The notes under the pieces were generated by a model. That model saw only the letters and a list, made by a program, of their open reading frames with translations. It had not been told where the DNA came from and ran no database searches. From the UHGV virus genome UHGV-0038496: 64,000 nt of DNA; one strand, written 5' to 3'. Shown here in pieces: positions 33,336 through 62,862 of this stretch (its first letter is position 1; every line of letters begins with the position of its first letter). The stretch is from a virus. The position numbers and the translations under genes were made by a program.

Positions 33336-33364
33336 ATTTTAGCACTAAACTCCTCAAAATGCAA
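33336..33364 (-). promoter_or_regulatory. sigma70-like promoter (TTGCAT, 17-nt spacer, TGC-TAAAAT)
   Basis: Read on the minus strand: TTGCAT, 17 nt, TAAAAT preceded by TGC; followed by RBS AGGAGAAAAC and the ATG at 33306. Confidence 0.45.
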
Positions 33365-33386
33365 CCAGAGGCTTCCTTGCCGTTGG

Positions 33387-33701
33387 TTATTTCTCCTTGT
33401 TACTCAGGAGAATCTGGATAATTTGTTGAATGTCGCTCCGCAATCCATTAACGTCACTTTTGACCTCTTTCCTTAACTCGTCAAGGTTATCTTGAATATC
33501 TTTAAGACGCTGGTTCAACACCGCGTCAAGTCTATCTTTTGTAACCATATTGCTTTTCACCAAAATAAGGTCCTTCTCTAAATCATCCAATCTTTTAGAG
33601 ACGGCTTTCCACTTTACGTGCCACTGACCAAAAATCCAGACACCTATCGGGACAATAACGCTCATGATTATCTCAAAAAGCGTACCAAAGTCCAGTTCCA
33701 C
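33387..33701 (-). CDS. hypothetical membrane-anchored coiled-coil protein
   Basis: N-terminal hydrophobic helix IIMSVIVPIGVWIFG then heptad-like charged sequence. Confidence 0.4.
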   Translation of the reverse strand: MELDFGTLFEIIMSVIVPIGVWIFGQWHVKWKAVSKRLDDLEKDLILVKSNMVTKDRLDAVLNQRLKDIQDNLDELRKEVKSDVNGLRSDIQQIIQILLSNKEK

Positions 33702-33710
33702 ATTACCTCC

Positions 33711-34328
33711 TTAGAAGGCTGGGCGATCAGGGATATGTATGTTAGGGGCTTTGTTTATATCAATCTCCAGTAGGTGAATCCTGTAAAGTTTCAGTTCCTT
33801 AACAAACTGCTCCTGTTCAGGAGATAGTATATAATCCAAGTCCAGCATGTCGCTGAAAGCTCCAAGCCTTGCTGTAGCCCATTGCAATTCTTCTTCAATG
33901 ATCTGCTGTGCAGCATCGATGTAAGGTTTGTTATCAACAACAAATTTCTCACCATCCCAGCGGTAGGCATTGATCATGTTCTCAATGTCTTCCGGGAACT
34001 CCTCTCGTTTACCGTGCAGGACTTGAAGACCATCACTGGGGAAAATACCTGCGGGATCTGTGGTTACAATTTTCAGTAAACCATCGGATTCTATAACTGC
34101 GAACAGGTATTCTACTCCAGATTCCTGGGCAATTTGCTGTAATTCTCGTGTCTGGGCGTACCAGTCACCGTGCTCATTGCGAAGGAAGTAAGCAGAATAA
34201 CGAGCGTAATCTTCAATCTCCTGCTCTGTTAATTCCAAGGTTTGTGGCTGATCTTCATCGAGAGCCAACACCATCGGGCGAGGCTCTTGCGGATCATACA
34301 GCTCAAAACCTGTAGCCATTTTGATCAT
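33711..34328 (-). CDS. putative tail fibre assembly / chaperone protein
   Basis: 205-aa acidic protein immediately downstream of a fibre gene; assignment by position and composition only. Confidence 0.3.
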   Translation of the reverse strand: MIKMATGFELYDPQEPRPMVLALDEDQPQTLELTEQEIEDYARYSAYFLRNEHGDWYAQTRELQQIAQESGVEYLFAVIESDGLLKIVTTDPAGIFPSDGLQVLHGKREEFPEDIENMINAYRWDGEKFVVDNKPYIDAAQQIIEEELQWATARLGAFSDMLDLDYILSPEQEQFVKELKLYRIHLLEIDINKAPNIHIPDRPAF

Positions 34329-34344
34329 AATATGTAACCCTCAA

Positions 34345-35385
34345 TTATAGTGTCTGAACGGTAATCCACTGTCCGTTAACAAGTTTCTGTAGCGGAGCTG
34401 CCCAGTAACCTGCACCACGGAGTTCTTTTTTGTTACCGTTAGCCCATCCTCTCATAACATAACCCGGACGTACCCTATTATTAGAAACCCCATCGATCAA
34501 CATACCGCCGCAGCGAATATCCTGAACGCCTGAAGCTGGGATACTGATAGTCAAGTTACCATTACCATCCGCGTTCACACCGTTGACTGAACGAACTACA
34601 TGGCGACCACCAACCACACAATACTGGCTACGGACTGTCATGTTATCGACGTTGGAACCACCGTTAGCATAGAAGCTACCTGTGGTCAACTGGCTCGATA
34701 CGCTGACGTTACCGAAGGAAGCTGTACCAGTAATGGTGACTGTGTTGGAACGCACGTTGTCCTGTGCTTCAATGTTACCAATGACTTTGAGAAGTGCACG
34801 GTTAACAGAGATAGCATTCAGATGCATCAGTGTAAACTCTGGGTTGATATCCGGTTGTGTAGGTTGGAATCTCCAACGGAAAGCATCAACTATGGAAGTA
34901 CCACCATCGTCGAATGAACCAACGTTATCCATCAAGCAGAAGTCTAACAAGGTTTTATCTGGACTGATTGTGGTTTCTATCCACGCCGCATCTGTTTCCG
35001 CTGCCGCAAAGTTAATGCGTTGCAATCCCAGAGGACCTGTCATTGTGTCACCAGTGATCTTGACGTAACGTGCGTCAGTCTCAGCTTTAGTAACAATGCC
35101 GAGGTTTTTACGGGCAATCTCTACATTCAAAAGATCGCTCAAGTTGTTGTCCTTAATAAGATAACGTCCTTCCATAGACGGGATCTGATCTTCGGAAATG
35201 TATTTGGCCCAGGTAGCCAGCATGTTGATGAGGTAGTTCAACTCTTCACATGATGGTTTCTGCCCTTTATCCCAACCTTTTCTCCAGAGATCGTCAATAG
35301 GACGCATCTTATTCTGTTTATGGGAGTTGGGGAGGATTTGATCCTCCGCAGCCCATATCTCTAAAGGAAAACTAGGTTTAGCCAT
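34345..35385 (-). CDS. tail fibre protein, paralogue B (346 aa)
   Basis: Shares N-terminal (MAKPSFPLEIWA...) and C-terminal (...RGAGYWAAPLQKLVNGQWITVQTL) blocks with the 32242..33306 product. Confidence 0.65.
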   Translation of the reverse strand: MAKPSFPLEIWAAEDQILPNSHKQNKMRPIDDLWRKGWDKGQKPSCEELNYLINMLATWAKYISEDQIPSMEGRYLIKDNNLSDLLNVEIARKNLGIVTKAETDARYVKITGDTMTGPLGLQRINFAAAETDAAWIETTISPDKTLLDFCLMDNVGSFDDGGTSIVDAFRWRFQPTQPDINPEFTLMHLNAISVNRALLKVIGNIEAQDNVRSNTVTITGTASFGNVSVSSQLTTGSFYANGGSNVDNMTVRSQYCVVGGRHVVRSVNGVNADGNGNLTISIPASGVQDIRCGGMLIDGVSNNRVRPGYVMRGWANGNKKELRGAGYWAAPLQKLVNGQWITVQTL

Positions 35386-35398
35386 TTATTTCTCCTGA

Positions 35399-37477
35399 TT
35401 ATGAAAGGTCTGGTGGTGTCACATCTTCTGTGTAGCTTTTAAGGGCTGTCTGCCCCATGTGAACAACAGTTGACTCTTTCGCACTGAATGTGATACTATC
35501 ATTCATAAGTTGAGGATAAGCCCATACGTACTGCTGTACTTCTGGGTAATGATACTCAGTGGTGCAGATATTACCACAGATCATTCTCCACAAAAATTCC
35601 TGATAGTTCTTCTCTGGGTCATAGCCATACACCGGAGCTAAATCTTTACCTGGTACAAACCCTGCGAGGTAGTGGATTTCGTTCCTGTTCCACCCCAAGG
35701 TTTTACGAGGATGTTCGATAGCTTCGAATGAACGTTCTATTTTCCCATTCATAACCCAATCATAGCATTCTGAACAGAAGAAGTCAAGTACTCCTGACTC
35801 TTTCTTGTACTCATCCGGCAGGTTAAGTTTTTCCATCACTGTACCAACAATGGTGGGATAGAAAACAAGGACTGTAACCTGAGCGCCAGGGAATGCTGCT
35901 TTAATTCCGGCAGAGATTGTTGCAATTCTCTGACCGAATTTTTTACGACAGAATGCGATGTACCTGTCATAAACACCACCAGTTAATGGTTTGTCAATGG
36001 TGCCCATGTCAAGTGCATACTCTCCTGTTTCCCTGTAGAACAGCTCTTTTGTGGTGTAGTCGTAAATACAAGGCTTGCGAGAGTCTGTATTGTACCACCA
36101 CCACGGTTCGCCAATCTGCATAATAACAGGAAGGTTTTTACTTTTCAAGATCTGAGCGAAGTTTTTAAAGACGCTCAGCAGGAATGTCATACCCCCTTCG
36201 ATACAAGGCGATAACAGGTAGCTGCAAGGTGTATACCCTGTCTTAGCGTAGCTATCGTCCCATTCGCGTTGAGTCCATTCCAGAGGACAGGCATCACTAT
36301 AAAGCTCCATGCTGACAGAGAACATTGCATCAGTGAATCCGTAACGAGTCAAATTGTAAGCAAAGTCATCATGCCATGCTTTGGCAGCTTTGTTCAGAGT
36401 ACCTGATCTGTCGATTTCCCATTTGTGAGTTGAGCTTCCCCATGAGTAATTATAATAGTGACTCATACCGCAATAGTGGTTGATTCTACCACGGTAGCCA
36501 AGTTTCTGGAGGTTGTAAAGAACACGCGCTGGGGAAACATTCCACATATCATCGTATGCAGTGCAAGCCCTTAAATCGTGACCTTCTACAGTCAGATCAT
36601 TAAGCTGCATGTATTTCCAGCCAGTGTCCGGCTCCAGCATATCAATGCGAAGTTCACAGTCAACATTAGTTGTGCGAACGTCTGTGCTGTTGGCAACATA
36701 ATCCTTAGGCATTAACGGGATCAGGATCTTGCGAACCTGACGAGGGTCAACTGCCACCAAGTAATTATTTTTGTCAACACCCAGACAATCCTCAAAATTG
36801 AGGTGAATATCTGCTGTGGTTTTATCAGCAGAAATGTTAGAAGCATAGTCCGACATACGGACGTAAACTATTGTACCATCAACAAGAGTGATAGTAATTG
36901 TGGCCTGACCTGGGGTTGTAAAGTCAAGAGCGTTGGTGAACTTGACCCTGAACCACAGCTTGGTATTACGCATCTCATAATGATCATCATATCCTACACC
37001 AAAATGGTCGTATGTGTCAACTGTTTCCCAGATTGCTCCAGACATACCCCCCATCGTACGTGAAGTCATTGTGACAATCACTGTGGAGTTGTCTGACTTG
37101 ATCGATGTACTCTCAGTCGGCTGGCAATTTGTTACCCAGTAGCGTGGGTGGAACATTCGTTCTTCTCGTGTTCCCCATTCAAGTCTGCTCAAATCTTCTC
37201 GTGAAATGATCGTGCATTTTGCTTGTTTGGTCCCAATTACCGTCCCCTGTGAGGGGGTATGGAACTGCATATAGAAGCTACGAGGCAGTCTGTTAGGTTT
37301 TTTATCCACAATATTAACAGGGATATCCACAAAAGCAGAATCCACTGGGATGATCGCCTTGCCTTCGACGTGAGTGTAATCACGCCCAGGCACAGCGGTA
37401 TCTGCCAGGGTGTTATACATAAATTCTGCCTGGAGTGTGGTGTAATCCCTGTAAGTTCTGAATACAGCGGTTGCCAT
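35399..37477 (-). CDS. large tail-associated protein (692 aa), possibly enzymatic
   Basis: Location between baseplate and fibre genes; Trp/Tyr-rich central region (GEPWWWY); no family assigned. Confidence 0.4.
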   Translation of the reverse strand: MATAVFRTYRDYTTLQAEFMYNTLADTAVPGRDYTHVEGKAIIPVDSAFVDIPVNIVDKKPNRLPRSFYMQFHTPSQGTVIGTKQAKCTIISREDLSRLEWGTREERMFHPRYWVTNCQPTESTSIKSDNSTVIVTMTSRTMGGMSGAIWETVDTYDHFGVGYDDHYEMRNTKLWFRVKFTNALDFTTPGQATITITLVDGTIVYVRMSDYASNISADKTTADIHLNFEDCLGVDKNNYLVAVDPRQVRKILIPLMPKDYVANSTDVRTTNVDCELRIDMLEPDTGWKYMQLNDLTVEGHDLRACTAYDDMWNVSPARVLYNLQKLGYRGRINHYCGMSHYYNYSWGSSTHKWEIDRSGTLNKAAKAWHDDFAYNLTRYGFTDAMFSVSMELYSDACPLEWTQREWDDSYAKTGYTPCSYLLSPCIEGGMTFLLSVFKNFAQILKSKNLPVIMQIGEPWWWYNTDSRKPCIYDYTTKELFYRETGEYALDMGTIDKPLTGGVYDRYIAFCRKKFGQRIATISAGIKAAFPGAQVTVLVFYPTIVGTVMEKLNLPDEYKKESGVLDFFCSECYDWVMNGKIERSFEAIEHPRKTLGWNRNEIHYLAGFVPGKDLAPVYGYDPEKNYQEFLWRMICGNICTTEYHYPEVQQYVWAYPQLMNDSITFSAKESTVVHMGQTALKSYTEDVTPPDLS

Positions 37478-38166: not shown

Positions 38167-38175
38167 AACTCCACC

Positions 38176-39666: not shown

Positions 39667-39700
39667 ATTTCCTCTCAGTTGGGAGAAACCCTTGTGACCT

Positions 39701-39729
39701 ATTTTACCAAAAAACAGCAAAATAGTCAA
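39701..39729 (-). promoter_or_regulatory. sigma70-like promoter (TTGACT, 17-nt spacer, TGG-TAAAAT)
   Basis: Read on the minus strand: TTGACT (rc of 39724-39729), 17 nt, TGG then TAAAAT (rc of 39701-39706). Confidence 0.5.
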
Positions 39730-39745
39730 TTACAGATACAAAAAA

Positions 39746-39761: not shown

Positions 39762-39786
39762 TAATGTATCAGGAGAAACTTGAATT

Positions 39787-40311: not shown

Positions 40312-40318
40312 TTTTCTG

Positions 40319-49256: not shown

Positions 49257-49903
49257 GCATAAGTGTGGGCTTTGTATTCCTGATAGAAACTATCAAGGTC
49301 AACGCCGTTGGCAGTGATCATTCTCCCTTCAGGAGTGACCTTTGCCCCATTCATCACGATGTTACCATCTGTCTTAGCAGTCAGGCTTGCTGCCCCGTTG
49401 TTGAAGCTAAACTCACCAGATTGATCCACAACCAAAGTACCAGCCGGAGTCTGCAATGTAAAGTCTCCGTTCGGTGTCATTGTGAAATGCACTTGGTCAT
49501 TATACAGCTCAACGTTCTCCGGGTCAATAGGCATTGCATTACCATCTGAATGGACAGAAGTAATCGCCCATCCAGGGAACAGGCCATGAGTTTGCATATC
49601 GTCGTTGTTGTTCTCATTACGTTCAGAGAACTGCAAACCAACGATATCCCCAGGCTTGATTGGTAACGTCAGCCTTGCCTTACCACCATTGGCAGATACC
49701 ATTTGAAGCGGAACATCGTAAATCAGTGGAAAGCGATCCACATCGTCATCTTCAAAATATGTCTCAGCCAGAGGCTGGACAGAAGCAGAAGGAATGGAGT
49801 AGTCCACAGAGACAACTCTTGCTCTCACAGAAGTGTGAAAGCCTCGCATCGTCTCCTCGATGAAACTACGAAACGCTGCATCTTTTCTGGCAAGTGTTCC
49901 CAT
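49220..49903 (-). CDS. putative baseplate spike / assembly protein V-like
   Basis: 227 aa with a beta-rich repetitive C-terminal half, in the position of P2 gpV / Mu gp45-type spikes. Confidence 0.4.
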   Translation of the reverse strand: MGTLARKDAAFRSFIEETMRGFHTSVRARVVSVDYSIPSASVQPLAETYFEDDDVDRFPLIYDVPLQMVSANGGKARLTLPIKPGDIVGLQFSERNENNNDDMQTHGLFPGWAITSVHSDGNAMPIDPENVELYNDQVHFTMTPNGDFTLQTPAGTLVVDQSGEFSFNNGAASLTAKTDGNIVMNGAKVTPEGRMITANGVDLDSFYQEYKAHTYACPHGGRTSTPG

Positions 49904-50568
49904 TATTCCTCCTGACTGTCATCAACTAGTAGAGAATCTCTGTAAGAAATTGCGTCAGATAGGTCTTTAAACTGCCTTCTTCTCTTCCCCGGAACTTGAA
50001 CTCTCCACCTGCCACGTTCTTTAGCAAAACGGATATATTTTTCTCCAGACAGATTATCAGACCTTGCTCTTACCTTAATCTTAGGTGCTATACCTGAGGC
50101 AATATCCTCCTCCGCTCGTTCCCTGGCCTCCACAGCTTCTTCAAAAGTATCAAAACTTCCAAGGCTATATTTATGGTTACCATGCACTACCGCTGCTTTC
50201 CACTTGTGCTTAGTATTGCAATAGTGGACACCCGCGACACCTGAAGTGTTATTAATATTTAAATTTTTTCTTTTAATACAAGAGGTGTTCACAGCAGGTG
50301 TGACCAGCTCTAAATTCTCAATGCGGTCATCCCCCCGAATGCCGTTTATGTGGTTAATAACCAACCCTTCTGGGATAGGGCCATTGAACATTTCCCAGAC
50401 AACCCTATGTCTGTAGAAACGTTCATGACCTACACCAACATGCCAGTACCCGTGCCCCGAATCGCACCCAACTTTTGCCCCTGTGTAATGCCCGTTGCGG
50501 CTGGTTTTCCAGAACAACTCCCCATCTACATATAGAAAATGCTCATGAAAATTAATCATCGCTTCCAT
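49903..50568 (-). CDS. free-standing HNH homing endonuclease with AP2-type DNA-binding domain
   Basis: HNH_3 motif LVINHINGIRGDDRIENLELVTPAVN; AP2-like SGVAGVHYCNTKHKWKAAVVHGNHKYSLGSFDTFEEAVEARERA; likely start is the second ATG at 50559 (RBS GAGGA); overlaps both neighbours. Confidence 0.75.
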   Translation of the reverse strand: MEAMINFHEHFLYVDGELFWKTSRNGHYTGAKVGCDSGHGYWHVGVGHERFYRHRVVWEMFNGPIPEGLVINHINGIRGDDRIENLELVTPAVNTSCIKRKNLNINNTSGVAGVHYCNTKHKWKAAVVHGNHKYSLGSFDTFEEAVEARERAEEDIASGIAPKIKVRARSDNLSGEKYIRFAKERGRWRVQVPGKRRRQFKDLSDAISYRDSLLVDDSQEE

Positions 50569-51990: not shown

Positions 51991-52875
51991 TTATTTGTTG
52001 TCATGCATGTAGTTATTTTGCTCAGAAGGAACGATTGTAGAGTTACCACCATATTCCTGACGATAGGCTTCCTGAACAGTCATACCAGAGTTTTTTAGCT
52101 GGATGTTTTTCTGTCCGTCCCACTTCTGTTTAGCATTGGTGTATGTCGTATCTGCATACGGACTGGCATTAGCAGAGTTACCAACGTTACTGTCCTTCGT
52201 GCAATCGTTAACCGCACCTTTCTGTTTTGATTTATCAACCTTTTTAGGATTTGTGTAGACAGTAGCATTGACCATCTTGTTGAGGACGAAAGTTCTGAAC
52301 TCTGTCAGCTCAACATCGAACACCAAAGCAGCACCTTCACCTGTGCTTTTCTTCGCACTACATTTGGTAACTATGTAGTTTTCAAGGATAGCTTCCTCGG
52401 TTACCAACGTAACCAATTGTCTTCTCTTGATAACTTCACCCATTGCCTGTAATGCAGCTTCAGGCCTTGCAGAGTCTGCTGGTCTTTGTGGGTCAGTGTT
52501 TCTGTCAATGTAGTTTTGTTCGTACACTATGTGTGGTGAAGTATTCACCCTACCTGTGAAGGAGAATACTGCATCCTTGATCACTGCGTGATCCGAAATC
52601 GTAACACGGTCTTCGACCGCAAACTGTGTTTTATCAACACTTCTGTCGAAAGTATAATTCTCAATCTGGTCAAATATGATAGCGATATCGTTGGTGAAGT
52701 TTTTACCCTTCAACTCAATGTTACGACCACCATAATTCAAGCCGCTGATGAACAAAGTAAACTGTACGTCCTCTGTCTCTTTCTCAGCTTCTTCTGCCTT
52801 CTCTGACCTGACCAGCTGAGGTTTATATAGGTCTTTTTCATCGACCACTTTTTCTACACCGGGTGTATATGGCAT
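51991..52875 (-). CDS. hypothetical tail protein
   Basis: 294-aa ORF; RBS GGAGAGG; first gene after the terminator-promoter pair downstream of the tape measure gene. Confidence 0.45.
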   Translation of the reverse strand: MPYTPGVEKVVDEKDLYKPQLVRSEKAEEAEKETEDVQFTLFISGLNYGGRNIELKGKNFTNDIAIIFDQIENYTFDRSVDKTQFAVEDRVTISDHAVIKDAVFSFTGRVNTSPHIVYEQNYIDRNTDPQRPADSARPEAALQAMGEVIKRRQLVTLVTEEAILENYIVTKCSAKKSTGEGAALVFDVELTEFRTFVLNKMVNATVYTNPKKVDKSKQKGAVNDCTKDSNVGNSANASPYADTTYTNAKQKWDGQKNIQLKNSGMTVQEAYRQEYGGNSTIVPSEQNNYMHDNK

Positions 52876-52979: not shown

Positions 52980-54088
52980 TTAGTTAGTAGGACTTGCAAA
53001 CAGGTTAATATCTTTCCAATTTTCCCATTCAAATCTTGCATCCAGCATTTCTTCGAACTGAGCAGCGTCAAACTCGATTGTAATTTTACCCTCACCAACT
53101 TCCAGAGGAATTGGAGGAATTTCGAAGGATGGTAACGGATCCAAAGGTGTACTTGGAGTTGGATTAGCTCTGTAGGTAATCGGGTTAAGCATACGGTAAT
53201 CCAGGCCAAGGAAAGATGAAATGCCGTTAACACCATCGACAAGCCACTGCGGATGTTTGGTCACGTCAGTTTCCTGGTGGTAGTTTTGCATCCAATCATC
53301 CAACATACCAGCACCTTCGTACCCCATGTAGCCCAGAGCTAATGGTCCTTTCCATTTCCACAGTCCACCAAGTAACCGTGCAAACAATCCTTTCTTAGCC
53401 ATGGCTGCTGCACCACCCGCAGCTGCACCACCTGCGGCGGCACCACCGAGAGCACCTGCAACACCTCCGGCAGCTTTAATCATACCCAGGGTTGCGGCAA
53501 CAGCTTTGACGATTCTCAGCAATTTCCATACGGCGTTAACAACAACTAAGATGGAGAAAGCATAGCCTACCCATTTAGCTTTGCTGAATGTTTCATCAAC
53601 AGTGTCACTTGTATCTTTGACTTCTTTTTTCAGCAGACCAAAGTGGTCTTTGACTTGCAACCACCAGATACGGATACTGACAATCGTGTTGTTCAATTCA
53701 CCAACAATGTCGTTCAGACCCTGGATAAATCCAGATACAAACTCACCAGCCTGCATGATCATTGGGGTGAATGTTTCTCCTGTGCGGATCAGGGTGTAAT
53801 AAAACTCGGTGAGTTCATCTGACCATGTGGTGAACAGTTTTTGTTTAGTCAATTCGATGAAAGTTTTCAAACGGTTTTCAGCCAGAACGTTAGATTTCTG
53901 CATACGTTCATAACCAGCAGCTGACGCTTCGTTCATGTACTTAGCAACGTATTTCATCATTTTGGCTGTTTTGACCTGGCCTTTCTGCATCATGTCCATG
54001 AATTGTTCCATAGACAGCTCAGACAGGTTGAAAGCCTCTTTTGTTGCTTTAATGAACGGCTCGTAAGCACCTGGCATTGCTTCAGCTA
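52980..54088 (-). CDS. tail tape measure protein, exon 2
   Basis: Track ORF is TTG-initiated with an in-frame stop just upstream at 54108-54110; contains a Gly/Ala-rich hydrophobic segment (GGVAGALGGAAAGGAAAGGAAAMAKKG) typical of tape measure proteins; predicted 3' splice site after G at 54089. Confidence 0.6.
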
Positions 54089-54917
54089 CCAATGTCCAGA
54101 CAGTTCGCTACGCTGTCCCGGTGTGCTAAGACACCCGCCACACATTTCTGTGTGGAGCAGACTATATCTTCTCTGGATAACCAGAGCCAACCATTTCAGA
54201 GGCGCTTGCCTCTTACACCGCTACACTCATCACGGTTAGTCGTTGAGCACATAACTTATAAATCTTTCAGCAGTTTAGACCATGCTTTCTTAGTCTTGAT
54301 TCGAACAATTGCTGATCTGCAAGCACCAAATTCTTCCATCAAATCTGTTGTATTCTCAAACCGCCTGTTATAAATTTCGATAACCTCTTCTGCTGTGAGC
54401 TTATGATTGGCATTTGACTCACCAGAGGCATCATTCAGGCCATTTGCAAAAGCATGTTTCTGATTGCCAGATCGAGTAACATACTCCAGATTATCTTTAT
54501 GGTTGTTTGCTTTATTACCGTCCTTATGGTTAACTTCCATCCCAGGTTGTGGAGGTTCACCAAGGAAAGTAAGGGCAACTATTCTGTGAACAAGATACAA
54601 CACACATTTGCCGTTTACCCGAAAGTAAACGCGTTTGTAACCATTGTGTATTGTCTGCTCAGTCAACTGCTTCCGTGTGTTTCTTCTTGTAGAGAATATT
54701 GCACCGTCCTCTCTACAGAAGTACCCATCGTGACCAGGAACTGGTCGGATTTCTAAGTTACTTCGCTGCGGATTATCCATTGTTACATCCTCCAAACTTT
54801 TTACCATACCCCGAGTAGTTACTTCGGGCCATAAACATGTTACCACATTTATTTGGTATTTGGAAGGCTTTAGGAGCTTCCCGCAATTAGGTTGGTTTTA
54901 TAACAGCTAGTATGTCA
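54089..54917 (-). mobile_element. group I intron (about 0.83 kb) in the tape measure gene, carrying an HNH ORF
   Basis: Read on the minus strand: P-like AATTGCGGGAAGC (rc of 54876-54888), Q AATCCGCAGC (rc of 54765-54774), R-like TCAACGACTAA (rc of 54236-54246), S AAGATATAGTCT (rc of 54159-54170). Candidate P1: exon AACAGU pairs with intron GCUGUU, with U-G at the splice site. Intron 3' end GGACAUUGG is homologous to the polymerase intron 3' end GAACAUGUG. Boundaries predicted only. Confidence 0.65.
54256..54780 (-). CDS. intron-encoded HNH homing endonuclease (paralogue of the 1250..1756 product)
   Basis: HNH_3 motif VHRIVALTF...VNHKDGNKANNHKDNLEYVT...NQKHA; shared LTAEEVIEI block; start taken as ATG at 54778-54780 with RBS GGAGGA (track ORF extends upstream to 54846). 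Confidence 0.8.
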   Translation of the reverse strand: MDNPQRSNLEIRPVPGHDGYFCREDGAIFSTRRNTRKQLTEQTIHNGYKRVYFRVNGKCVLYLVHRIVALTFLGEPPQPGMEVNHKDGNKANNHKDNLEYVTRSGNQKHAFANGLNDASGESNANHKLTAEEVIEIYNRRFENTTDLMEEFGACRSAIVRIKTKKAWSKLLKDL

Positions 54918-56142
54918 ACTGTTGTTTTAGTTCCTCAGACATTACCTGTCCTTTACCAAGCATTTGCTGTATCGCCATAATACCACGCTGATATTTTACT
55001 TCATCAGCACCATATGACGCAGCATATTGCGAATAAGCAGAGAACAGATCACGGACTTCCTGCCCTGTCATTTGGTTTTTGGCGTTTACTGCCATTTGAG
55101 AGTAGCCTTGCAGACCTGATTTCAGGTCGAAGCCTAATCTCATAGCTTCACCTTGTACGAATGCAACTTCCGAGTTAGCTTTCGTAGGATCACCCATAAC
55201 GTTGGTAAGAGCAGCACTCGCACCTTCCATCATGTGACCGGATTTGTTAACACTGACAATTGCAGAGAATGCGGTGTACGCTTTAGTCAAATCCATGACT
55301 GTTGTTCTTAATTTATTAAAAGCGGTGCTCAGAGTCATGGTTCCAGCAGCAGCATTAGCAAACCCCTTCTGCATTGCAGCGATCTGGGCGTTGAAAGTTG
55401 ACTTACCTATCAACCCTTTTGCATATTGCTGTTCAACCTGACGGTAGCCACCTAACATATCCCTAAAATTAGCCCCATAACGAGCTGTCAGACGCGTTGA
55501 CATGTTGGTAAGGTGTGTTAGCCTATCCATACCCACATTATTGCGTTTGGGCGTTCCTGAGCTGCCATTTTGCTTGTGCCATCTGTTCATTGCAGCAGTC
55601 TGGGCACGAACAAGTGCTGGGTTGGAAGCTACACCACCCATGTTGGGGTTACCTGGGATATATCTGAAGGTATTTGCTCTGGACAGAGCACGGGGTGAGA
55701 CTGGTTTGTTGGAGAAGTAGGAACTACCTAAGCCACCACTTTTCTTAGCCAGTTTGGATTGTTCCTGATAGAATTTACGCATTCTCACCAATTCAGGATC
55801 TTTGGCAGTCATCTGACCGACAACCTGTTTCCTTCTGGCGTTCTCACGTTTTTCTATCGCAGATCGTACAGCAGCTTCACGTTTAGCCTGGGATACAGCT
55901 TCCTGATGCATACGGCGTTGCTGTTGCAACTGTTTATTCTGTACCCTCTGAACAATCTGACCAGTCTTCTCCATCGATGCTTGCCAGGCTTTCAGAGGAT
56001 TCCCCTTTCCCAAAGAATCGCCCAGCTTTGTAAACTCCCTGCCTAATCCTTTAATTCTTTCAATAGCTTTTTTATAGCTATTGTTATCGATCTCAAATGT
56101 AATTCGGTTTGTGGTTGTGGCAACCACTTTGTTACCAGCCAT
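54918..56142 (-). CDS. tail tape measure protein, exon 1
   Basis: Long alpha-helical, Q/A/K-rich N-terminal region; RBS AGGAGAG before ATG at 56142; the track ORF continues three codons into the intron to a TAG at 54907. Confidence 0.6.
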
Positions 56143-56196: not shown

Positions 56197-56200
56197 TGCT

Positions 56201-56446: not shown

Positions 56447-56457
56447 TACGACTTTGC

Positions 56458-56922: not shown

Positions 56923-56969
56923 TTCTCGTTACCCTTAAAGTTAGTTGTCATGCGTTATCGCATAGATTT

Positions 56970-56998
56970 ATTATAGCATTGTACTCACTTTTTGTCAA
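56970..56998 (-). promoter_or_regulatory. consensus sigma70 promoter (TTGACA, 17-nt spacer, TGC-TATAAT) followed by a short inverted repeat
   Basis: Read on the minus strand: TTGACA (rc of 56993-56998), 17 nt, TATAAT (rc of 56970-56975) preceded by TGC; the hairpin ATGCG-ATAA-CGCAT lies at about +5 to +20. Confidence 0.6.
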
Positions 56999-57008
56999 TG
57001 CAAACAGA

Positions 57009-57026
57009 AAGCCTCCGAAGAGGCTT
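57009..57026 (-). terminator. rho-independent terminator overlapping the nuclease stop codon
   Basis: AAGCCTC-CGAA-GAGGCTT hairpin followed on the minus strand by TTTCTGTTTG. Confidence 0.55.
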
Positions 57027-58563
57027 ATAACCACTTAGCTCTCCATACCCATTTAATCTTACCACTATCCCACAACCGGATAGCCCCAACCAAATCTTCT
57101 ATCTCCCGCTCTGTACGAGGATCAATAGACTTATCTGGGTTGAAGTCTACATCAGATCTGCCAATCTCCTCCAGACGTTTAGGAATCAATCGACGTTGCC
57201 AGTGTGGTTTCGGACGCAAACCATTAGCAGGGTGGAATACTCTGTAGTCAGGTTTGCCATACGTTTCAGCAACAAATCCCAACACTTCATAAACCCCACC
57301 AGCGAAGTAGTCATTCATACTGAATGAACTAACCTCTTCTGGATTATTCTCCCTGATAAACGTTTTAAACAGTCTAGATGCCCCACCACGAACAGAACAG
57401 CTTGATGCAAATCTTGATAACTCCCATGTTGCCTTAGTCGTACCGTTAGCTCTGGCCTGACCTCTCGTAGTTTTACCGTAGCCGAAGCTCATGATTGCTA
57501 CAATTTCACCTTCTTTCGTTTTCAGAGCCAGATTGATAGGGTTAGGAGAATGGCCCTGCGGGTGGTAAGCGTCGTAAAACTCTTTGCACTCTATTGATTT
57601 TAGATGCACAACTTCACACTCCCTGGCATTTACTTTACGCTCACCATTACACCCCAAAGCATGAGCCAGCAACTGGCTGAACACTTTCTGGTTGTTATCC
57701 CAATCATAGTCCGTGATCTGGATCAGGCGAATACCTTTCTCTTTACAGGCTAACCACTTGTTGTAATGGTAGTCTTTAGACTTATGATTATCACCATGCC
57801 AGAAGACACCGTTAACTTCAATCGCCACACGTTTTGATGGGACAAAGATATCTAACTCTTTGCCATCATCCAAGATAGTGCGGTTAGACTGCTCCGCGTC
57901 TGGACAGATAGATTTTACAAAGTCAAAGACAGATCCTTCCACTTTAGAAGTCAATTTTGCACAATGCCTGCACCCATGACCTCTGTGAATGTGTTCTTTC
58001 ACAGGCTGTTGGAACTCTGATCCACATTTTGTGCATTCAATATTGAGAATGCCTTTCTTCCTTTCATCATAAAACATACTTTTGTAAACGTATTTATCTT
58101 TGTGGACCTCTTTAGCTTGTTCCACAACTTCTTCAAAAGAGTTTCTGCTTTTTCTACCACGAGTCATGTTAGCACAACGAGGGCAGCCCTGTCCTCTCAA
58201 ATGTTTGCTAGGTTTTTGTGAGAACACGCCGTGGTCAGGGCAAATAATGTTCACATTTGTCACTCTATCTTTATACACAACCTCAGAGTAATCGTAACGA
58301 TCACCATGTTTTTCTTTGGCCTTTTCGATAAATTCTTCCCTGTTTCCACGTTTACGCTCAAGGTAACATTCTTTGCACCCCTCCCCTTTTCTGTGAGCAT
58401 TCGCTTCTACCGAAAACACGCCATGTTTTTTGCAAATAATGTTAACTTTTTCTCTGCTACCTTTGTACTCAGTTTGACTGTAATCATACATTTCTTCAAA
58501 CTCAGGGTTTTCTTTGAAGACGGCTGTTAGCCATTCTTCTTTTGTATAACCTTTTCCAGCCAT
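57025..58563 (-). CDS. putative homing-type endonuclease: three tandem zinc-ribbon-like repeats plus Vsr-like PD-(D/E)xK nuclease domain
   Basis: Three roughly 45-aa repeats (Y.YS...Y......NIICP.HGVF......H..G.GC..C); nuclease-like block DIFVPSKRVAIEVNGVFWHGDNH resembling the FVDGCFWHGH core of Vsr (from memory); start set at ATG 58561-58563 (MAGKGYTKEEW...) with RBS AGGAG. Confidence 0.65.
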   Translation of the reverse strand: MAGKGYTKEEWLTAVFKENPEFEEMYDYSQTEYKGSREKVNIICKKHGVFSVEANAHRKGEGCKECYLERKRGNREEFIEKAKEKHGDRYDYSEVVYKDRVTNVNIICPDHGVFSQKPSKHLRGQGCPRCANMTRGRKSRNSFEEVVEQAKEVHKDKYVYKSMFYDERKKGILNIECTKCGSEFQQPVKEHIHRGHGCRHCAKLTSKVEGSVFDFVKSICPDAEQSNRTILDDGKELDIFVPSKRVAIEVNGVFWHGDNHKSKDYHYNKWLACKEKGIRLIQITDYDWDNNQKVFSQLLAHALGCNGERKVNARECEVVHLKSIECKEFYDAYHPQGHSPNPINLALKTKEGEIVAIMSFGYGKTTRGQARANGTTKATWELSRFASSCSVRGGASRLFKTFIRENNPEEVSSFSMNDYFAGGVYEVLGFVAETYGKPDYRVFHPANGLRPKPHWQRRLIPKRLEEIGRSDVDFNPDKSIDPRTEREIEDLVGAIRLWDSGKIKWVWRAKWL

Positions 58564-58596
58564 CGAAAAACTCCTAGTAGTTTTAAACACAGGGGA

Positions 58597-58626
58597 ACTA
58601 TACCACAAAACATTAGCTTTTGTCAA
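58597..58626 (-). promoter_or_regulatory. sigma70-like promoter with extended -10 (TTGACA, 18-nt spacer, TGG-TATAGT)
   Basis: Read on the minus strand: TTGACA (rc of 58621-58626), 18 nt, GTGGTATAGT (TATAGT = rc of 58597-58602); about 30 nt upstream of the nuclease RBS. Confidence 0.55.
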
Positions 58627-58642
58627 ACCCTATAAACAAGAA

Positions 58643-58662
58643 AGGCCACCCGAAGGTGGCCT
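58643..58662 (-). terminator. rho-independent terminator after the tail tube gene
   Basis: AGGCCACC-CGAA-GGTGGCCT hairpin followed on the minus strand by TTTCTTGTTTATAG. Confidence 0.7.
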
Positions 58663-58668
58663 GTAACA

Positions 58669-59142
58669 TTAAATGATACCAGTTAAACCTGCAAGTCCCA
58701 TCATTGCAGATTCAATGTTATCTTTGTTCAACCAGCAATCCAGTACGCCGATTTCCCAGTCCAGTTGTGCAACTTCTGTACCGTAGGTCAGGTCAGGTTG
58801 CTTCTGGATCCAACCGATTGTGGAAATACCAGGACCCTGGCTACCTTCCAGCAGAACAGGGAAGAATACAAGCCCTGTGATAGATGCTTGTTTCTGCCAG
58901 TCTGACAGGTAGGCGTTCCATGCTGCTGTGTTCTGGAGAGATACAGTCATTACACCAGATTGGTTACGGGATAATGCTGCACTCATTTCACCATCCACGC
59001 CTACATGCGGGTAGATGTTATCTTCGTTACGAGAGACAACGATTTTGGTGTCTGCCGCAAAACCTGATACACGCTGACCCATCAAATAAAGTTTTACTTT
59101 TTTCGGGTCATATGCATAGGGTGTTAAAATATCTGTGACCAT
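58669..59142 (-). CDS. putative tail tube protein
   Basis: 157-aa ORF immediately downstream of the sheath gene, with RBS AGGAGGG; gene order sheath-tube typical of contractile tails. Confidence 0.55.
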   Translation of the reverse strand: MVTDILTPYAYDPKKVKLYLMGQRVSGFAADTKIVVSRNEDNIYPHVGVDGEMSAALSRNQSGVMTVSLQNTAAWNAYLSDWQKQASITGLVFFPVLLEGSQGPGISTIGWIQKQPDLTYGTEVAQLDWEIGVLDCWLNKDNIESAMMGLAGLTGII

Positions 59143-59153
59143 TTACCCTCCTG

Positions 59154-60539
59154 TTACGCAGTCATTGCCTGGGCATTCGTGCTGGTTGTACCAGTTTTAT
59201 CCAGCAATACATTGATGCGGATTTTCACGAAGTGCAGAGCATTGTTGTAAACCATTTCTACTTTAACACCTTCCAGGGTACGAGCAGCCAGCTGGTTAGC
59301 AGGGATGGTAGCACGTTTTGGAACAGTGATAATCGGATCGTAGAATACGCTGTTTTCTTCATCATACCCAGTCAGGATAGCACCGTTACGGATACCAACG
59401 TTGATCGGGTCGTTCATCAGAACAGATTTAATAACAGGCAGGTCGTCATCAGACATTTTCATGCTCATGCCCATGTTGGATCTGCGATGCATGTAGCCAA
59501 ACATAGATTCTTCGGAACGGAATTTGATCCAGTGGGAGAATCTGATTACGTCAGCATATTGGCCTGAAGCGCATTTACCTTCCCAGAAGCAACCAACACC
59601 GTTGATCATTCTGTAGAAGTTCAGGTTGTTGTCCCACAATGCCATTCTCTGACCGACACCCATGTTCGGAGGAGTGATACCTGGCATTTTTTTCAGGTGT
59701 AAGCTGTCACCATAAGACGGGTCATTGGATGCCATTGCACCGATGATACCACCTTCTGGGAAGTCCATGTTAGCACGAGGATCCCACATACCTAAAGTAT
59801 CAAGCTGGAGCTGTTTGAGAGCATAACCAATACCACTTTCTACACCCATTGCATCTTGATCAGCAGTGGAGTAAACGTGAAGTTTGTAGTTAGCTTGTGC
59901 CCATTTTGCAAGAGCTGTGATAGCAGTAACGCTGTGGTCTTCGGAGCACAGGAAATACCAGTTACTGTTTTCATCATTAATGTCATCAACGACTGTCTGA
60001 GGAGTTTCACTGGATTTATTTTCAATTTTGAAATCGCCAGCACCGTAGCCAACGGTAGCACCTTTGATGGTAACTTTACCGGAGTTAGCTTTAGCAGTTA
60101 CACTGGCACCTGACAAGATTTCATCACCAGTAATAGCTGTAGCCAAAGCCTCAGCGATTGTGGAAGCAGCAGTACCACCACCAACTGGAATGACTATGGC
60201 GCGATCATAATTAGGGATTGCTACGTTTACGATAACTTGGGATTCAGCTGGGAATACGCCACCAACAAAGTCAACAACAGTTTCTGTTGCAGCCTGACGA
60301 CCGATGACGATGTATTGCGGCGGGAACTCACCACCGAAAGCGTTAGAAGCGAAGGTGTGAGCAGCACTGCCTGGTGCAAAACCATCGTCAACTAACTGAT
60401 CGAGTTCAGCGTAAACGCGAGCGCGTTCAGTAAAATTATTGTGGATGGCAATAAACAAGGGAGTTTCGAAGCCTACTGTGTCAATCGGCTGTGTACCCAG
60501 GTTTACTTGCACATCGACAACTTTATCATTGTAAGGCAT
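59154..60539 (-). CDS. putative tail sheath protein
   Basis: About 461 aa (track ORF is GTG-initiated at 60566; ATG at 60537-60539 has RBS AAGAGGAAA); size, composition and position upstream of the tube gene. Confidence 0.6.
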   Translation of the reverse strand: MPYNDKVVDVQVNLGTQPIDTVGFETPLFIAIHNNFTERARVYAELDQLVDDGFAPGSAAHTFASNAFGGEFPPQYIVIGRQAATETVVDFVGGVFPAESQVIVNVAIPNYDRAIVIPVGGGTAASTIAEALATAITGDEILSGASVTAKANSGKVTIKGATVGYGAGDFKIENKSSETPQTVVDDINDENSNWYFLCSEDHSVTAITALAKWAQANYKLHVYSTADQDAMGVESGIGYALKQLQLDTLGMWDPRANMDFPEGGIIGAMASNDPSYGDSLHLKKMPGITPPNMGVGQRMALWDNNLNFYRMINGVGCFWEGKCASGQYADVIRFSHWIKFRSEESMFGYMHRRSNMGMSMKMSDDDLPVIKSVLMNDPINVGIRNGAILTGYDEENSVFYDPIITVPKRATIPANQLAARTLEGVKVEMVYNNALHFVKIRINVLLDKTGTTSTNAQAMTA

Positions 60540-60611
60540 TTGTTTCCTCTTCAATATCTTGTGCACAGGATATTAACAAGCAGCATAATCATTACGCTGC
60601 ATGGAGAACGA

Positions 60612-61160
60612 TTACTGACCAGGGTCGATAACCGCTTGACTGTCATCAGCAGGGTGGAGAACATGAAGCTCAGCTTCGATGCCCTGAAGATCTTCGAACG
60701 CTGCCATGTCAGTCTCAATAAACCTGACGTTAAACGTCATCATTACTGTGGCTCTTACCTCATATGCTTGCTTATTCATCGGGACTCGCAGAGGTGAGAT
60801 TGTAGAGGCCGAAGAATAGGCGTACATAGAACCACCAGGAAAGAATTTATCGTAAAACATCGGAAGGTTTATTGCTTGCAATAATCTGGACAATGCTGCA
60901 TATGCTTTACCACGGTAGGCAGTTAACATATAGGTAACTGTGTAATTGTGGGTAACGTAAGCAACACCCTCTTCGGTCTGGAACTCGTTATCTTCCCAGA
61001 TGTGAGGTTGGATACCCATCGTTTCAAGAAGGATAAACTCACCATCTGGTTTTGGAATGATCTCCTGATCACCCATGATGACACGTCTGCCTGTGGCAAC
61101 TCTTGCCATCTTAGCGACAATTTCCTCCAGATCATTAAAAACTTTTTCAAACTCTTCCAT
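60612..61160 (-). CDS. hypothetical neck / tail completion protein
   Basis: 182-aa ORF upstream of the sheath gene. Confidence 0.35.
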   Translation of the reverse strand: MEEFEKVFNDLEEIVAKMARVATGRRVIMGDQEIIPKPDGEFILLETMGIQPHIWEDNEFQTEEGVAYVTHNYTVTYMLTAYRGKAYAALSRLLQAINLPMFYDKFFPGGSMYAYSSASTISPLRVPMNKQAYEVRATVMMTFNVRFIETDMAAFEDLQGIEAELHVLHPADDSQAVIDPGQ

Positions 61161-61597
61161 CAGATTGTGTCTCCTTCGTTATTTGTGGGTTCTTCCACAA
61201 CATAGGAGCGGTATCTTTCCACACCTGACGTATGATACTGATCGCATTTCAGAACAGTGAACCATGTTAATTCACCATGCAGGTTAGGCAACTGAATCTG
61301 ATCTGCAAGCTGGTATTCCCCTTCATTTGGGCTACGCAGACGTACAGAGGAATAAACCGTATACGCTTCGTATTGTCTACCACCTTCGGGGTTAATTTGC
61401 GAGGAGTAGTCTTTAGCCGCACGGCCTGTTAAAGGCTGCATAACGCATTCTAAAACATCGAACTCTTCTATCTCAAGCTCAACACCTTTGTTAGCAAAAG
61501 GGCTGTTATCGATGCGTTTAAGCGTTCTGTGACGACCTTTGAAAGTCTTCCTAGGAATTAATTTATTTTTACCAATCAATCTGTAGCCTACAGCCAT
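61160..61597 (-). CDS. hypothetical neck / tail protein
   Basis: 145-aa ORF with start/stop overlap. Confidence 0.35.
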   Translation of the reverse strand: MAVGYRLIGKNKLIPRKTFKGRHRTLKRIDNSPFANKGVELEIEEFDVLECVMQPLTGRAAKDYSSQINPEGGRQYEAYTVYSSVRLRSPNEGEYQLADQIQLPNLHGELTWFTVLKCDQYHTSGVERYRSYVVEEPTNNEGDTI

Positions 61598-61607
61598 TCA
61601 ACCTCCA

Positions 61608-62075
61608 TTAGTCTTTTAATTGTCCGATCTTGAAGGTTGCCGACTCAAGCAACACATCGTAATGACGCATAGCTTCGTTAAAGCCTTTTTCTTGCGCCCA
61701 TTGTTCGCTTACCGTTGGATTGCTGAACATTCCCGCCTCGATAACGAACTTGATGGCCTCGGCCCCGCCTTTACCGATTTGCTTCAGGACAGTATCTGGA
61801 CTTGCCCCGCGCGATAAAGCACGAAGCAGTCGTTCCATCTGCTTGGGGAGTTCCGCATTGTAAAATACGAAAGCTGTTTCCATGAAATTACGAACCGGAA
61901 GACCATTCCAGCCAAAGTTATGAATTGCAGCCAGTGTTGCCATATTCAGGCCGGAGTAATGTTCTTCGTCGTAAAATCCATAGGAGATAGTTTTACTTTC
62001 CAGCTTAATGAGTTCCCTGTGGAACCTTTCAAGCTGCTTAAAATTGGTTTTAGAAGTGCATTTTATTCTAAGCAC
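61608..62075 (-). CDS. hypothetical head-tail joining protein
   Basis: 155-aa ORF (GTG start in track) directly downstream of a promoter. Confidence 0.35.
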   Translation of the reverse strand: MLRIKCTSKTNFKQLERFHRELIKLESKTISYGFYDEEHYSGLNMATLAAIHNFGWNGLPVRNFMETAFVFYNAELPKQMERLLRALSRGASPDTVLKQIGKGGAEAIKFVIEAGMFSNPTVSEQWAQEKGFNEAMRHYDVLLESATFKIGQLKD

Positions 62076-62093
62076 TTTGCCCCCAATAGATAA

Positions 62094-62122
62094 ATTATAC
62101 CACAGGCTGCAACAATTTTCAA
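62094..62122 (-). promoter_or_regulatory. sigma70-like promoter with extended -10 (TTGAAA, 17-nt spacer, TGG-TATAAT)
   Basis: Read on the minus strand: TTGAAA (rc of 62117-62122), 17 nt, TGGTATAAT (TATAAT = rc of 62094-62099). Confidence 0.5.
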
Positions 62123-62137
62123 TACTAATTTAGCAAA

Positions 62138-62800
62138 TTACCTGCGAGATGGGTATCTTTTTGGTTGTCCAGGTGAACCACTCATAGGTGTGATACCAGA
62201 AACATCAAAGCCACAAACACTGTTACTATGACGTTTAACTCTCTGGAACTCATCTTCACGAACACCACCGATGATAACCAGTCTACCACAGGAATCCAGT
62301 TCAGAGTCAACATAGTCTGGGTTAGCAACCAACCAGTCAAGGAAGTCTCTCCAGCCCTGCCATGTGGTCTGGCCTATGCGAACTTCAACACTTTCATCAC
62401 CGATTTTTTCCATACGGGAACTAATGCTGGACTCACCGCTCGCAACTTCCTGGACCATCAGCCAGCGAACAGCTTGTACCATTGCATCGTATTTGACATT
62501 CGGCAATCTTTCTGGATGATTTTCCAGATCATGTCTCATTACTGCCATTTCAACAAACAAGGCCAGAGTTTCAGGTGGTAACACCTCTTTTGATACATTG
62601 CCCAGCAGGATACGAATAAATGCTGACAACGAATCTTCTCGACCGAACTCAGGATCAATATCATCATCTGGTACAGTTGGCAATTCCGGCTCCGGTTCTG
62701 TTGGTTCTTCAGGTTCAACTGGATCTACTGGTGCTTCGCCTTCACCAGTGCCAGGATCTTGAGAAGTAGGGACTACCTCTTCTTCTTCATACCACGCCAT
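62138..62800 (-). CDS. hypothetical head / neck protein with acidic Pro/Glu-rich N-terminus
   Basis: Start set at ATG 62798-62800 (MAWYEEEEVV...) with RBS GAAGGAGA; track ORF starts at an upstream GTG. Confidence 0.4.
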   Translation of the reverse strand: MAWYEEEEVVPTSQDPGTGEGEAPVDPVEPEEPTEPEPELPTVPDDDIDPEFGREDSLSAFIRILLGNVSKEVLPPETLALFVEMAVMRHDLENHPERLPNVKYDAMVQAVRWLMVQEVASGESSISSRMEKIGDESVEVRIGQTTWQGWRDFLDWLVANPDYVDSELDSCGRLVIIGGVREDEFQRVKRHSNSVCGFDVSGITPMSGSPGQPKRYPSRR

Positions 62801-62833
62801 TCTGTCTCCTTCAAGGATTATGGACACTTAATT

Positions 62834-62862
62834 ATTATACCATGATGACTACAAATTAGCAA
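62834..62862 (-). promoter_or_regulatory. sigma70-like promoter with extended -10 (TTGCTA, 17-nt spacer, TGG-TATAAT)
   Basis: Read on the minus strand: TTGCTA (rc of 62857-62862), 17 nt, CATGGTATAAT (TATAAT = rc of 62834-62839); the -35 overlaps the last codons of the HNH gene. Confidence 0.5.

Follow-up and report, generated by a model that had tools for sequence, protein, structure and literature searches.

Predicted terminator-promoter units with extended -10 sites in the virion gene cluster of an uncultured relative of Escherichia phage rV5 and their association with homing endonuclease genes

In the genome of Escherichia phage rV5, 33 promoters very similar to the E. coli consensus, 11 of which have an extended -10 element, and 20 Rho-independent terminators have been reported (Kropinski et al. 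2013, PMC3606486; DQ832317). The same study described eight copies of the motif TggTAaAAtA upstream of the late genes 27-66, which were likened to the T4 late consensus; homologues of T4 gp33, gp45 and gp55 were not found, the protein gp11 was regarded as Srd-like, and it was considered that a T4-like polymerase modification might not occur (PMC3606486). For CB7, a phage of the related genus Certrevirus, an early promoter resembling sigma-70 sites but no phage RNA polymerase was reported (PMC7344957). Here, we deal with the promoter- and terminator-like elements in the minus-strand virion gene cluster of the virus genome UHGV-0038496, of which one stretch of 64,000 nucleotides was analyzed (hereafter the window, 64 kb out of an approximately 140-kb genome). 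The cluster is punctuated by terminator-like hairpins and by sigma-70-type sites carrying an extended -10 element. This layout is real, conserved, well above chance and of a kind described for rV5, and it leaves the current understanding unchanged. New in relation to the rV5 work are promoter sites that adjoin open reading frames (ORFs) for homing endonucleases.

The minus strand between 24328 and 63548 codes for tail sheath, tail tube, tail chaperones, tape measure, baseplate and tail-fibre proteins according to PHROG scans, and the gene order of rV5 is matched gene for gene, including the bidirectional terminator at 24283-24301 that closes the cluster. The nearest cultured phages belong to Vequintavirus, with approximately 79% identity of the baseplate protein. 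In the INPHARED collection, none is closer than approximately 79% protein identity, and the DNA identity to Vequintavirus members reaches at most 78%, over small parts only. Closer than the cultured phages are four IMG/VR contigs of a single metagenome (92-96% protein identity), none of them identical to the window. One IMG/VR contig shares an exact 41-mer with the window, but with proteins that are approximately 92-96% identical it is not the source of the window. Taken together, these identities mark the window as part of an uncultured, roughly genus-level relative of rV5. For the comparisons below, we used 25 IMG/VR loci at the tail tube gene (L002-L026), seven at the baseplate gene (L027-L033) and the full rV5 genome.

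Six promoter-like sites had been proposed for this cluster in an earlier, sequence-only reading, each composed of a TTGnnn -35 element, a spacer of 17-18 nt and the -10 form TG(G/C)TA(T/A)A(A/G)T. All six are present on the minus strand where they had been placed, and all of them are intergenic (Table 1). The end of the -10 hexamer lies 7-48 nt ahead of a minus-strand start codon, with a Shine-Dalgarno-like sequence in between. Two further intergenic sites were added, the extended -10 near the upper end of the cluster and the site 5' of a tail fibre gene; the range covered by the earlier reading starts at position 33,336 because the latter promoter sits there. In all eight intergenic sites TG is found one base 5' of the -10 hexamer, as TGG in five, TGC in two and TGT in one of them. 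The hexamers read TATAAT (four sites), TAAAAT (two), TATAGT (one) and TATACT (one), with A2 and T6 kept throughout. TTG at a spacing of 17-18 nt occurs in seven of the eight sites, and the longer form TRTGn is found in three of the six sites listed before.

Table 1. Promoter-like sites, terminator-like hairpins and inserted genes in and around the late cluster (dG, folding free energy; z, z-score of the fold).
Feature	Position	Strand	Details
Extended -10 TGTTATACT, weak -35	63583-63575	minus	5' of the inserted endonuclease-like ORF; missing from the sequence-only reading, outside its range
Promoter-like TTGCTA-17-(TGG)TATAAT = TGGTATAAT	62862-62834	minus	-35 overlaps stop codon of the inserted ORF; no adjacent hairpin
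Promoter-like TTGAAA-17-(TGG)TATAAT = TGGTATAAT	62122-62094	minus	5' of tail-completion/neck gene 61608-62075; no hairpin
Promoter-like TTGACA-18-(TGG)TATAGT = TGGTATAGT	58626-58597	minus	5' of Hef-like homing endonuclease gene
Promoter-like TTGACA-17-(TGC)TATAAT = TGCTATAAT	56998-56970	minus	12/12 plus TG; 5' of tail assembly chaperone and tape measure genes
Promoter-like TTGTAA-17-(TGG)TATAAT = TGGTATAAT	52938-52910	minus	5' of gene 51991-52875
Promoter-like TTGACT-17-(TGG)TAAAAT = TGGTAAAAT	39729-39701	minus	5' of baseplate wedge gene
Promoter-like TTGCAT-17-(TGC)TAAAAT = TGCTAAAAT	33364-33336	minus	5' of tail fibre gene 32242-33306; not listed in the sequence-only reading
Terminator-like hairpin AGCCCCACACCTTTTCGGGTCTGGGGCT, then TTATTTTTAT	63630-63603	minus	dG -17.3 kcal/mol, z -3.97; same hairpin in L002-L005
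Terminator-like hairpin after tail tube gene	58662-58643	minus	dG -16.1 kcal/mol, z -4.49; T-tract interrupted TTTCTTGTTT
Terminator-like hairpin at 3' end of Hef-like gene	57026-57009	minus	dG -10.5 kcal/mol, z -3.27; T-tract TTTCTGTTT, interrupted
Terminator-like hairpin 5' of tape measure gene	56195-56168	minus	dG -20.1 kcal/mol; no promoter follows; rV5 terminator annotated at same position
Terminator-like hairpin after tape measure gene	52973-52953	minus	dG -15.4 kcal/mol; kept in all relatives; annotated terminator in rV5
Terminator-like hairpin after tail fibre assembly gene	39762-39745	minus	dG -16.5 kcal/mol, z -4.84
Bidirectional terminator hairpin closing the late cluster	24301-24283	both
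Endonuclease VII-like ORF, 230 aa, free-standing insertion	62856-63548	minus	phrog_1035, 1.7e-20
Hef-like/HNH homing endonuclease gene between tail tube and tail chaperone genes	57025-58578	minus	phrog_559, 4e-103; tblastn matches to annotated homing endonucleases

To judge the frequency of such sites, matches to the 12-position sigma-70 consensus TTGACA-N16-18-TATAAT were compared with a null of 60 Markov-1 simulations. The minus strand has 12 sites with at least 11 of the 12 positions, compared with 0.55 +/- 0.76 in the simulated sequences, and 14 hits with an extended -10 (12 distinct sites) against 3.45 +/- 2.0; on the plus strand, three sites of at least 11/12 and two with an extended -10 were counted. 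All six listed sites lie within the 1,159 nt of intergenic sequence among 30,361 nt; by arithmetic from the simulation rate, approximately 0.06 would be expected there. Inside genes, the TG-bearing extended -10 hits are at chance level (6 vs 2.8 +/- 1.9 in codon shuffles), hence the promoter-site excess is specific to intergenic DNA. A chance origin of the sites was ruled out by the Markov and codon-shuffle nulls together with the intergenic restriction, while the exact 9-mer TGNTATAAT taken alone is weakly enriched (5 vs 2.2). TG is present in all six intergenic late-cluster sites that match at least 10/12 positions, whereas it occurs in none of the ten sites of at least 11/12 in the region 1-24 kb.

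The earlier reading had also counted at least five places with a GC hairpin and a T-tract ahead of a promoter and listed all six sites under them. This part stood for four of the six sites (hairpins at 58662, 57026, 52973 and 39762) and failed for the sites at 62862 and 62122, which have no adjacent hairpin. The four hairpins show folding energies of -10.5 to -16.5 kcal/mol (z -3.2 to -4.8), and the distance from the stem to the start of the -35 element amounts to 10-16 nt in every case. A fifth unit made up of a terminator and an extended -10 lies at 63630-63575, just beyond the range considered before, which brings the number in the window to five. Altogether, seven hairpins have the form of intrinsic terminators, that is a stable GC-rich stem-loop followed by a T-run at a gene 3' end (dG -10.5 to -21.3 kcal/mol, z -3.2 to -4.8). 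In five of them (52973, 39762, 63630, 56195 and 24301) the GC-rich stem is followed by a run of 4-6 T in a T-rich tail. No promoter follows the hairpins at 56195-56168, 30188-30167 and 24301-24283, and the hairpins at 30188-30167 and 40318-40276 are without T-tract. The Rfam search of the whole window gave no match at the gathering threshold, so none of the hairpins can be assigned to a curated RNA family.

The units are conserved well beyond the window. Upstream of the neck gene, TTGnnn-17-TGGTA(A/T)AAT was found in all 25 related loci as well as before rV5 ORF56, although the protein identity falls to 44-52% in the distant loci; this gap was compared by unaligned upstream sequences, whereas the MAFFT alignment placed the window sequence wrongly. 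After the tape measure gene, a GGGGC...GCCCC terminator is followed approximately 20 nt later by TG(A/C/G)TA(A/T/C)AAT in nearly all relatives (the sequence viewed for L015 ends short of the site). The baseplate unit TTGACT-17-TGGTAAAAT is kept in all seven baseplate loci and before rV5 ORF36, with diverged spacer sequence. Seven copies of the promoter in the gap between tail tube and chaperone genes agree throughout only in TTGACAA and TG.TA.A.T, and their spacers show no relation to each other. Such a combination of fixed hexamers and TG with diverging spacers is to be expected if the -35 and extended -10 elements are functional.

In rV5 the same units stand before ORFs 30, 36, 40, 48, 51 and 56, and its GenBank record annotates the promoter P51 and terminators after ORFs 49 and 50. 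The correspondence extends to single gaps. Ahead of the baseplate gene, rV5 has a terminator and TTGACT-17-TGGTAAAAT as in the window; after the tape measure gene (before ORF48), it has a terminator and TGATACAAT, and the orthologous window gap contains the same elements; in the tube/chaperone gap, a terminator and TTGACA-17-TGGTAAAAT correspond to the annotated P51, the positional equivalent of the window site 56998-56970; TTGCTT-17-TGGTAAAAT stands upstream of the neck gene, and TTGCAT...TGTTAAAAT upstream of ORF30, as at 33364-33336 in the window. The rV5 motif TggTAaAAtA is matched at 39701, which reads TGGTAAAATA, and at 33336, which reads TGCTAAAATA; other window sites (TGGTATAAT, TGGTATAGT) are one or two positions off. 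Sites of this type occupy the same gaps as those of rV5 ORFs 30, 36, 48, 51 and 56. The two phages also differ: the -10 hexamer is mostly TATAAT in the window clade and TAAAAT in rV5, two gaps of the window are enlarged by homing endonuclease cassettes, so that the unit appears twice, and a promoter of the window stands where rV5 has only a terminator before ORF57. What was observed directly is which sequence elements are present, where they stand, how far they exceed chance and how they are conserved. The layout is a rediscovery, in a new relative, of what had been predicted and published for rV5.

Two observations on individual gaps may be added here. Upstream of the neck gene (62137-62094, minus strand), the window sequence TTTGCTAAATTAGTATTGAAAAT resembles TTTGCTAAGATAATGTGGTAAAAT of the relatives. 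The neck-gene -35 element TTGAAA may descend from an ancestral extended -10, with the new TGGTATAAT approximately 23 nt downstream, which would represent promoter turnover within the gap. Furthermore, the tube/chaperone gap of L010-L026 (approximately 6470-6555) has a conserved nested hairpin cgtgtGCCACAtggaTGTGGCctttatacacg with neither T-run nor promoter, and next to it comes a second, small hairpin formed around the ribosome-binding site gacgcAGGAGcgt; the pair may serve in RNA processing or in the control of translation.

Three of the six listed sites adjoin inserted, free-standing endonuclease-type ORFs, which had been overlooked in the sequence-only reading and which are missing in relatives free of homing endonuclease genes (HEGs). 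The endonuclease VII-like ORF gave no tblastn match in L002-L026 or rV5. According to the junction alignment, its cassette separates the T-tract from the -10 element and has a copy of the TG-10 on each side. In the empty site of L002-L005, the terminator is directly followed by TGTTATAAT, and the window sequence TGTTATACT aligns with TGTTATAAT of L002. The -35 element of the downstream promoter (TTGCTA, 62862) is supplied by the 3' end of the endonuclease VII-like cassette. The Hef-like HEG is absent from L007-L026 and rV5, and L002 and L005 have unrelated HEGs (33-35% identity) in its place. In rV5-type loci, the tube/chaperone gap holds no gene but a single terminator and TTGACA-17-TGGTAAAAT. 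The HEGs of L002 and L005 have TTGACA...TGGTATAkT upstream, and a second promoter, TTGACA-17-TAAAAT, lies within their last codons. With three unrelated HEGs in close relatives (window 57025-58578, L002 6585-8814, L005 6596-8065), the tube/chaperone gap is a hot spot for such genes.

Other endonuclease genes of the cluster are placed differently. An ORF with HNH and AP2 domains (49903-50568, minus strand) is flanked by the baseplate hub gene, whose end it overlaps by 17 nt, and by the homologue of rV5 ORF45. The tape measure gene is split on the minus strand into an N half (54907-56142, phrog_5255 positions 1-431) and a C half (52980-54092, positions 430-795), with an HNH endonuclease ORF (54256-54846) in between; the insert covers about 54915-54087. 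The gene is contiguous in L002, in rV5-type and in more distant relatives, and the exons abut at 54916|54086. A match to the Rfam group I intron model RF00028 was obtained at 54927-54138 (24.8 bits, E 6.6e-4, below the gathering score), with core motifs including AAUUGCGGGAA, UAAUCCGCAGC and GAAGAUAUAGUCU. Judging from these features, the insert is probably a group I intron in which a homing endonuclease is encoded.

How could such a cluster be transcribed? We consider it likely that host sigma-70 polymerase initiates at the extended -10 promoters and that the late cluster is split into units by intrinsic terminators. That the sites work as promoters and the hairpins as terminators, which polymerase is used and when the genes are expressed are points that we infer from the elements described above. 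In this scheme, the tail and baseplate cluster would be a chain of short units, each begun at a sigma-70 extended -10 promoter where the host holoenzyme would initiate via contacts to TG and the -10 hexamer, usually also to a TTG -35. Several units would end at an intrinsic terminator placed 10-16 nt 5' of the next promoter. Leaky terminators of varying strength might cut down the read-through transcription behind the tube, chaperone, tape measure and fibre-assembly genes, among which tube and tape measure proteins are abundant products, and the promoters behind them would restore transcription and thereby re-set the expression of the next block. Dosage could thus be controlled block by block, and inserted genes would be insulated. 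The present form of three sites would have arisen from free-standing HEG cassettes that inserted in the units, and a promoter on both sides of the insert at each filled site would keep the downstream essential genes expressed. The sequence-only reading had left host RNA polymerase with modular re-initiation and a phage-specific late promoter class side by side. The former is better supported by the match to extended -10 promoters, the spacing of TTG and the conservation, by the lack of TATAAATA in the cluster and by the rV5 and CB7 reports, in which neither a phage RNA polymerase nor gp33, gp45 or gp55 homologues were described for this phage group; no positive evidence was found for the latter.

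Several points weigh against this scheme. The T-tracts of two hairpins (58643 and 57009) are interrupted, hence these may be weak terminators. The tube/chaperone promoter is lacking in the distant relatives L010-L026, which keep the hairpin alone, therefore not every unit is universal. The HEG at 49903-50568, which is absent from rV5, has no promoter/terminator unit; the association of HEGs with such units is therefore not a rule. In the literature, no transcript 5' or 3' ends were found for this phage or any close relative. Moreover, strong sigma-70 promoters are expected to fire early, so the late timing is unaccounted for. Finally, a phage-encoded polymerase factor could lie in the rest of the approximately 140-kb genome, beyond the 64-kb window.

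A further step would be that the late-operon units act as preferred, self-repairing landing sites for free-standing HEGs, which would enter between terminator and -10 element, with the resident promoter at the 5' side and a carried or newly created -35/TG-10 at the 3' side. We hold this idea tentatively and regard it as rather unlikely. If true, essential tail genes would never lose their expression, and the process would be a late-region, endonuclease-driven counterpart of the PeSL shuffling discussed below. The landing sites may also be combined with a -35-independent promoter class by which late genes escape a phage block of -35 recognition.

An improbable alternative to host sigma-70 initiation is a phage-specific late promoter class, for which the host core polymerase would be guided by a phage specificity factor, as T4 gp55 reads TATAAATA, and the likeness to sigma-70 sites would be partly coincidence. 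The restriction of TG to the late sites in the window would fit this explanation, as would the G at position -13 in five of the eight window sites and the A after the hexamer in all six rV5 TG.TAAAAT late-gap sites examined. Moreover, TggTAaAAtA was found specifically upstream of rV5 late genes, and its likeness to the T4 late consensus was put forward by the rV5 authors themselves (PMC3606486). However, TTG at the canonical spacing in seven of eight sites is kept across deep divergence, the -10 of the window clade has shifted to the sigma-70 consensus (TATAAT, not TAAAAT), TATAAATA is absent from the cluster, and no gp33, gp45 or gp55 homologues were reported in rV5. In addition, the TG-bearing promoters annotated in rV5 include some beyond the late cluster, such as P11, P74, P75, P93 and P150. 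A clean two-class model, with a -35 and no TG in early promoters and TG in late ones, fits the window and is likewise weakened by these rV5 promoters.

It is very unlikely that the units are mainly mobile-DNA baggage, brought in with homing endonuclease or other (moron-like or PeSL-like) cassettes, rather than native late-operon architecture. Such an origin could account for the endonuclease ORFs at three of the six sites that are missing in relatives, for two promoter copies at filled compared with one at empty sites, and for the promoter at both ends of each of the three different HEGs found at the tube/chaperone site of close relatives. But the neck, post-tape-measure and baseplate units adjoin no mobile gene and are conserved across relatives, the HEG-free rV5-type tube/chaperone gap already contains terminator and promoter, and the HEG at 49903-50568 and the intron HEG come without such a unit. 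Very little probability is likewise given to the hairpins being RNA processing or stability elements, such as RNase III sites or 3' stabilisers, in long late transcripts that arise by read-through and to which the downstream promoters would add little. The interrupted T-tracts TTTCTTGTTT and TTTCTGTTT, the hairpin of the distant relatives without T-run or promoter and the two window hairpins without T-tract point in this direction; on the other side stand the five hairpins of standard intrinsic-terminator form (GC stem, 4-6 T) and the annotation of the orthologous rV5 hairpins as Rho-independent terminators, and processing and termination are not mutually exclusive functions. T4-type late promoters have no -35 element. 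Promoters of this type were rejected for the cluster, whose minus strand lacks TATAAATA and in which TTG stands at the -35 position in seven of the eight sites.

Outside the late cluster, the minus strand of 1-17500 contains seven sites with perfect TTGACA, a spacer of 17-18 nt and TAnnAT but no TG (16524, 15202, 13730, 11748, 10449, 7286 and 880). Nearly all of them are located on the coding strand inside ORFs of the replication/rII region (6 intragenic vs 0.16 expected from codon shuffles); site 7286 ends on a doubtful TTG start call, and site 880 overlaps a plus-strand ORF call only. Compared with rV5, only site 7286 is kept (rV5 P231) and 880 partly; 13730 and 10449 are not. These seven sites may be internal early or middle promoters. 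On the plus strand, two perfect 12/12 sites without TG (TTGACA-17-TATAAT at 19889-19917 and TTGACA-16-TATAAT at 23647-23674) are located near the 3' ends of ORFs, just 5' of small ORFs, and are likely early promoters. The plus-strand ORF 17401-18498 is a homologue of rV5 gp11 (62% identity), which is annotated as Srd-like anti-sigma factor, and is placed as in rV5, where the replication genes and a plus-strand block of small ORFs diverge. Pfam gave no match for this homologue. Among ten small plus-strand ORFs, the Pfam search found no AsiA-like or sigma-like protein; nine had no match and one matched DUF2201.

Regarding its significance, the window shows the late-gene arrangement that was predicted for rV5 independently in a more divergent phage. 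Since the spacers vary around constant hexamers, the case is strengthened that virion genes of rV5-like phages are run from host-type extended -10 promoters. The HEG cassettes at the units illustrate how mobile genes might enter an essential operon without polar damage. This knowledge can help to interpret other mosaic phage genomes and to engineer insertions in therapeutic phages of the rV5-like type.

In comparison with other systems, the late sites resemble the TGn/-10 promoter class of E. coli (PMC2988021, PMC3950348) in the shared TG, in A2 and T6 of the -10 hexamer and in a weak or variable -35 at several sites. They differ in that most keep a usable TTG at 17-18 nt and that the sites 58626 and 56998 have a perfect TTGACA, hence they are not strictly -35-independent. 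In some other phages, a protein blocks the recognition of the -35 and leaves extended -10 promoters active: T4 AsiA blocks -35 recognition and spares TGn/-10 promoters (PMC2988021), and gp39 of the Thermus phage P23-45 disables -35 recognition, its middle and late promoters being of the extended -10 class (PMC3950348). The window is similar in that its late sites carry an extended -10 and would be read by the host primary-sigma holoenzyme, whereas TG is missing from the near-consensus sites outside the late genes, whose -35 is perfect. It differs in that no gp39 or AsiA homologue was identified in it and that the TG promoters of rV5 are not confined to late genes; the conserved TTG, moreover, suggests that the -35 is still used. 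A phage block of -35 recognition that keeps the late promoters late is therefore possible but unsupported. The resemblance to the T4 late promoters (TATAAATA, gp55/gp33/gp45) is limited to an A/T-rich -10-like motif upstream of virion genes, since the window cluster lacks TATAAATA, a TTG is present at -35, and no gp55, gp33 or gp45 homologues were reported in rV5.

Another likeness is found in the PeSL cassettes of T4-like phages, units of a stem-loop terminator and a strong sigma-70-like promoter in intergenic gaps (Arbiol et al. 2010, PMC2839356; Comeau et al. 2014, PMC4122927). The window contains five composite units of a hairpin and a sigma-70-like promoter. Two units flank a mobile ORF where the empty site of the relative has one, as seen for the endonuclease VII-like ORF compared with L002-L005 and for the Hef-like HEG compared with rV5-type loci, and in both systems the inserted gene would be transcriptionally insulated, which for the window is read from the arrangement of the elements. 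Nevertheless, PeSL cassettes provide early promoters in ORFan-rich hyperplastic regions, whereas the window units stand in a conserved late virion-gene cluster. PeSL copies have approximately 100 bp in common, which has been linked to homologous recombination and mini-circles; the window copies have in common the hexamers, the TG and a UUCG-type loop, with a mean column identity of 47%, and therefore share too little for homologous recombination. Finally, the cargo of the window units, unlike that of PeSL cassettes, consists of homing endonucleases with a mobility mechanism of their own.

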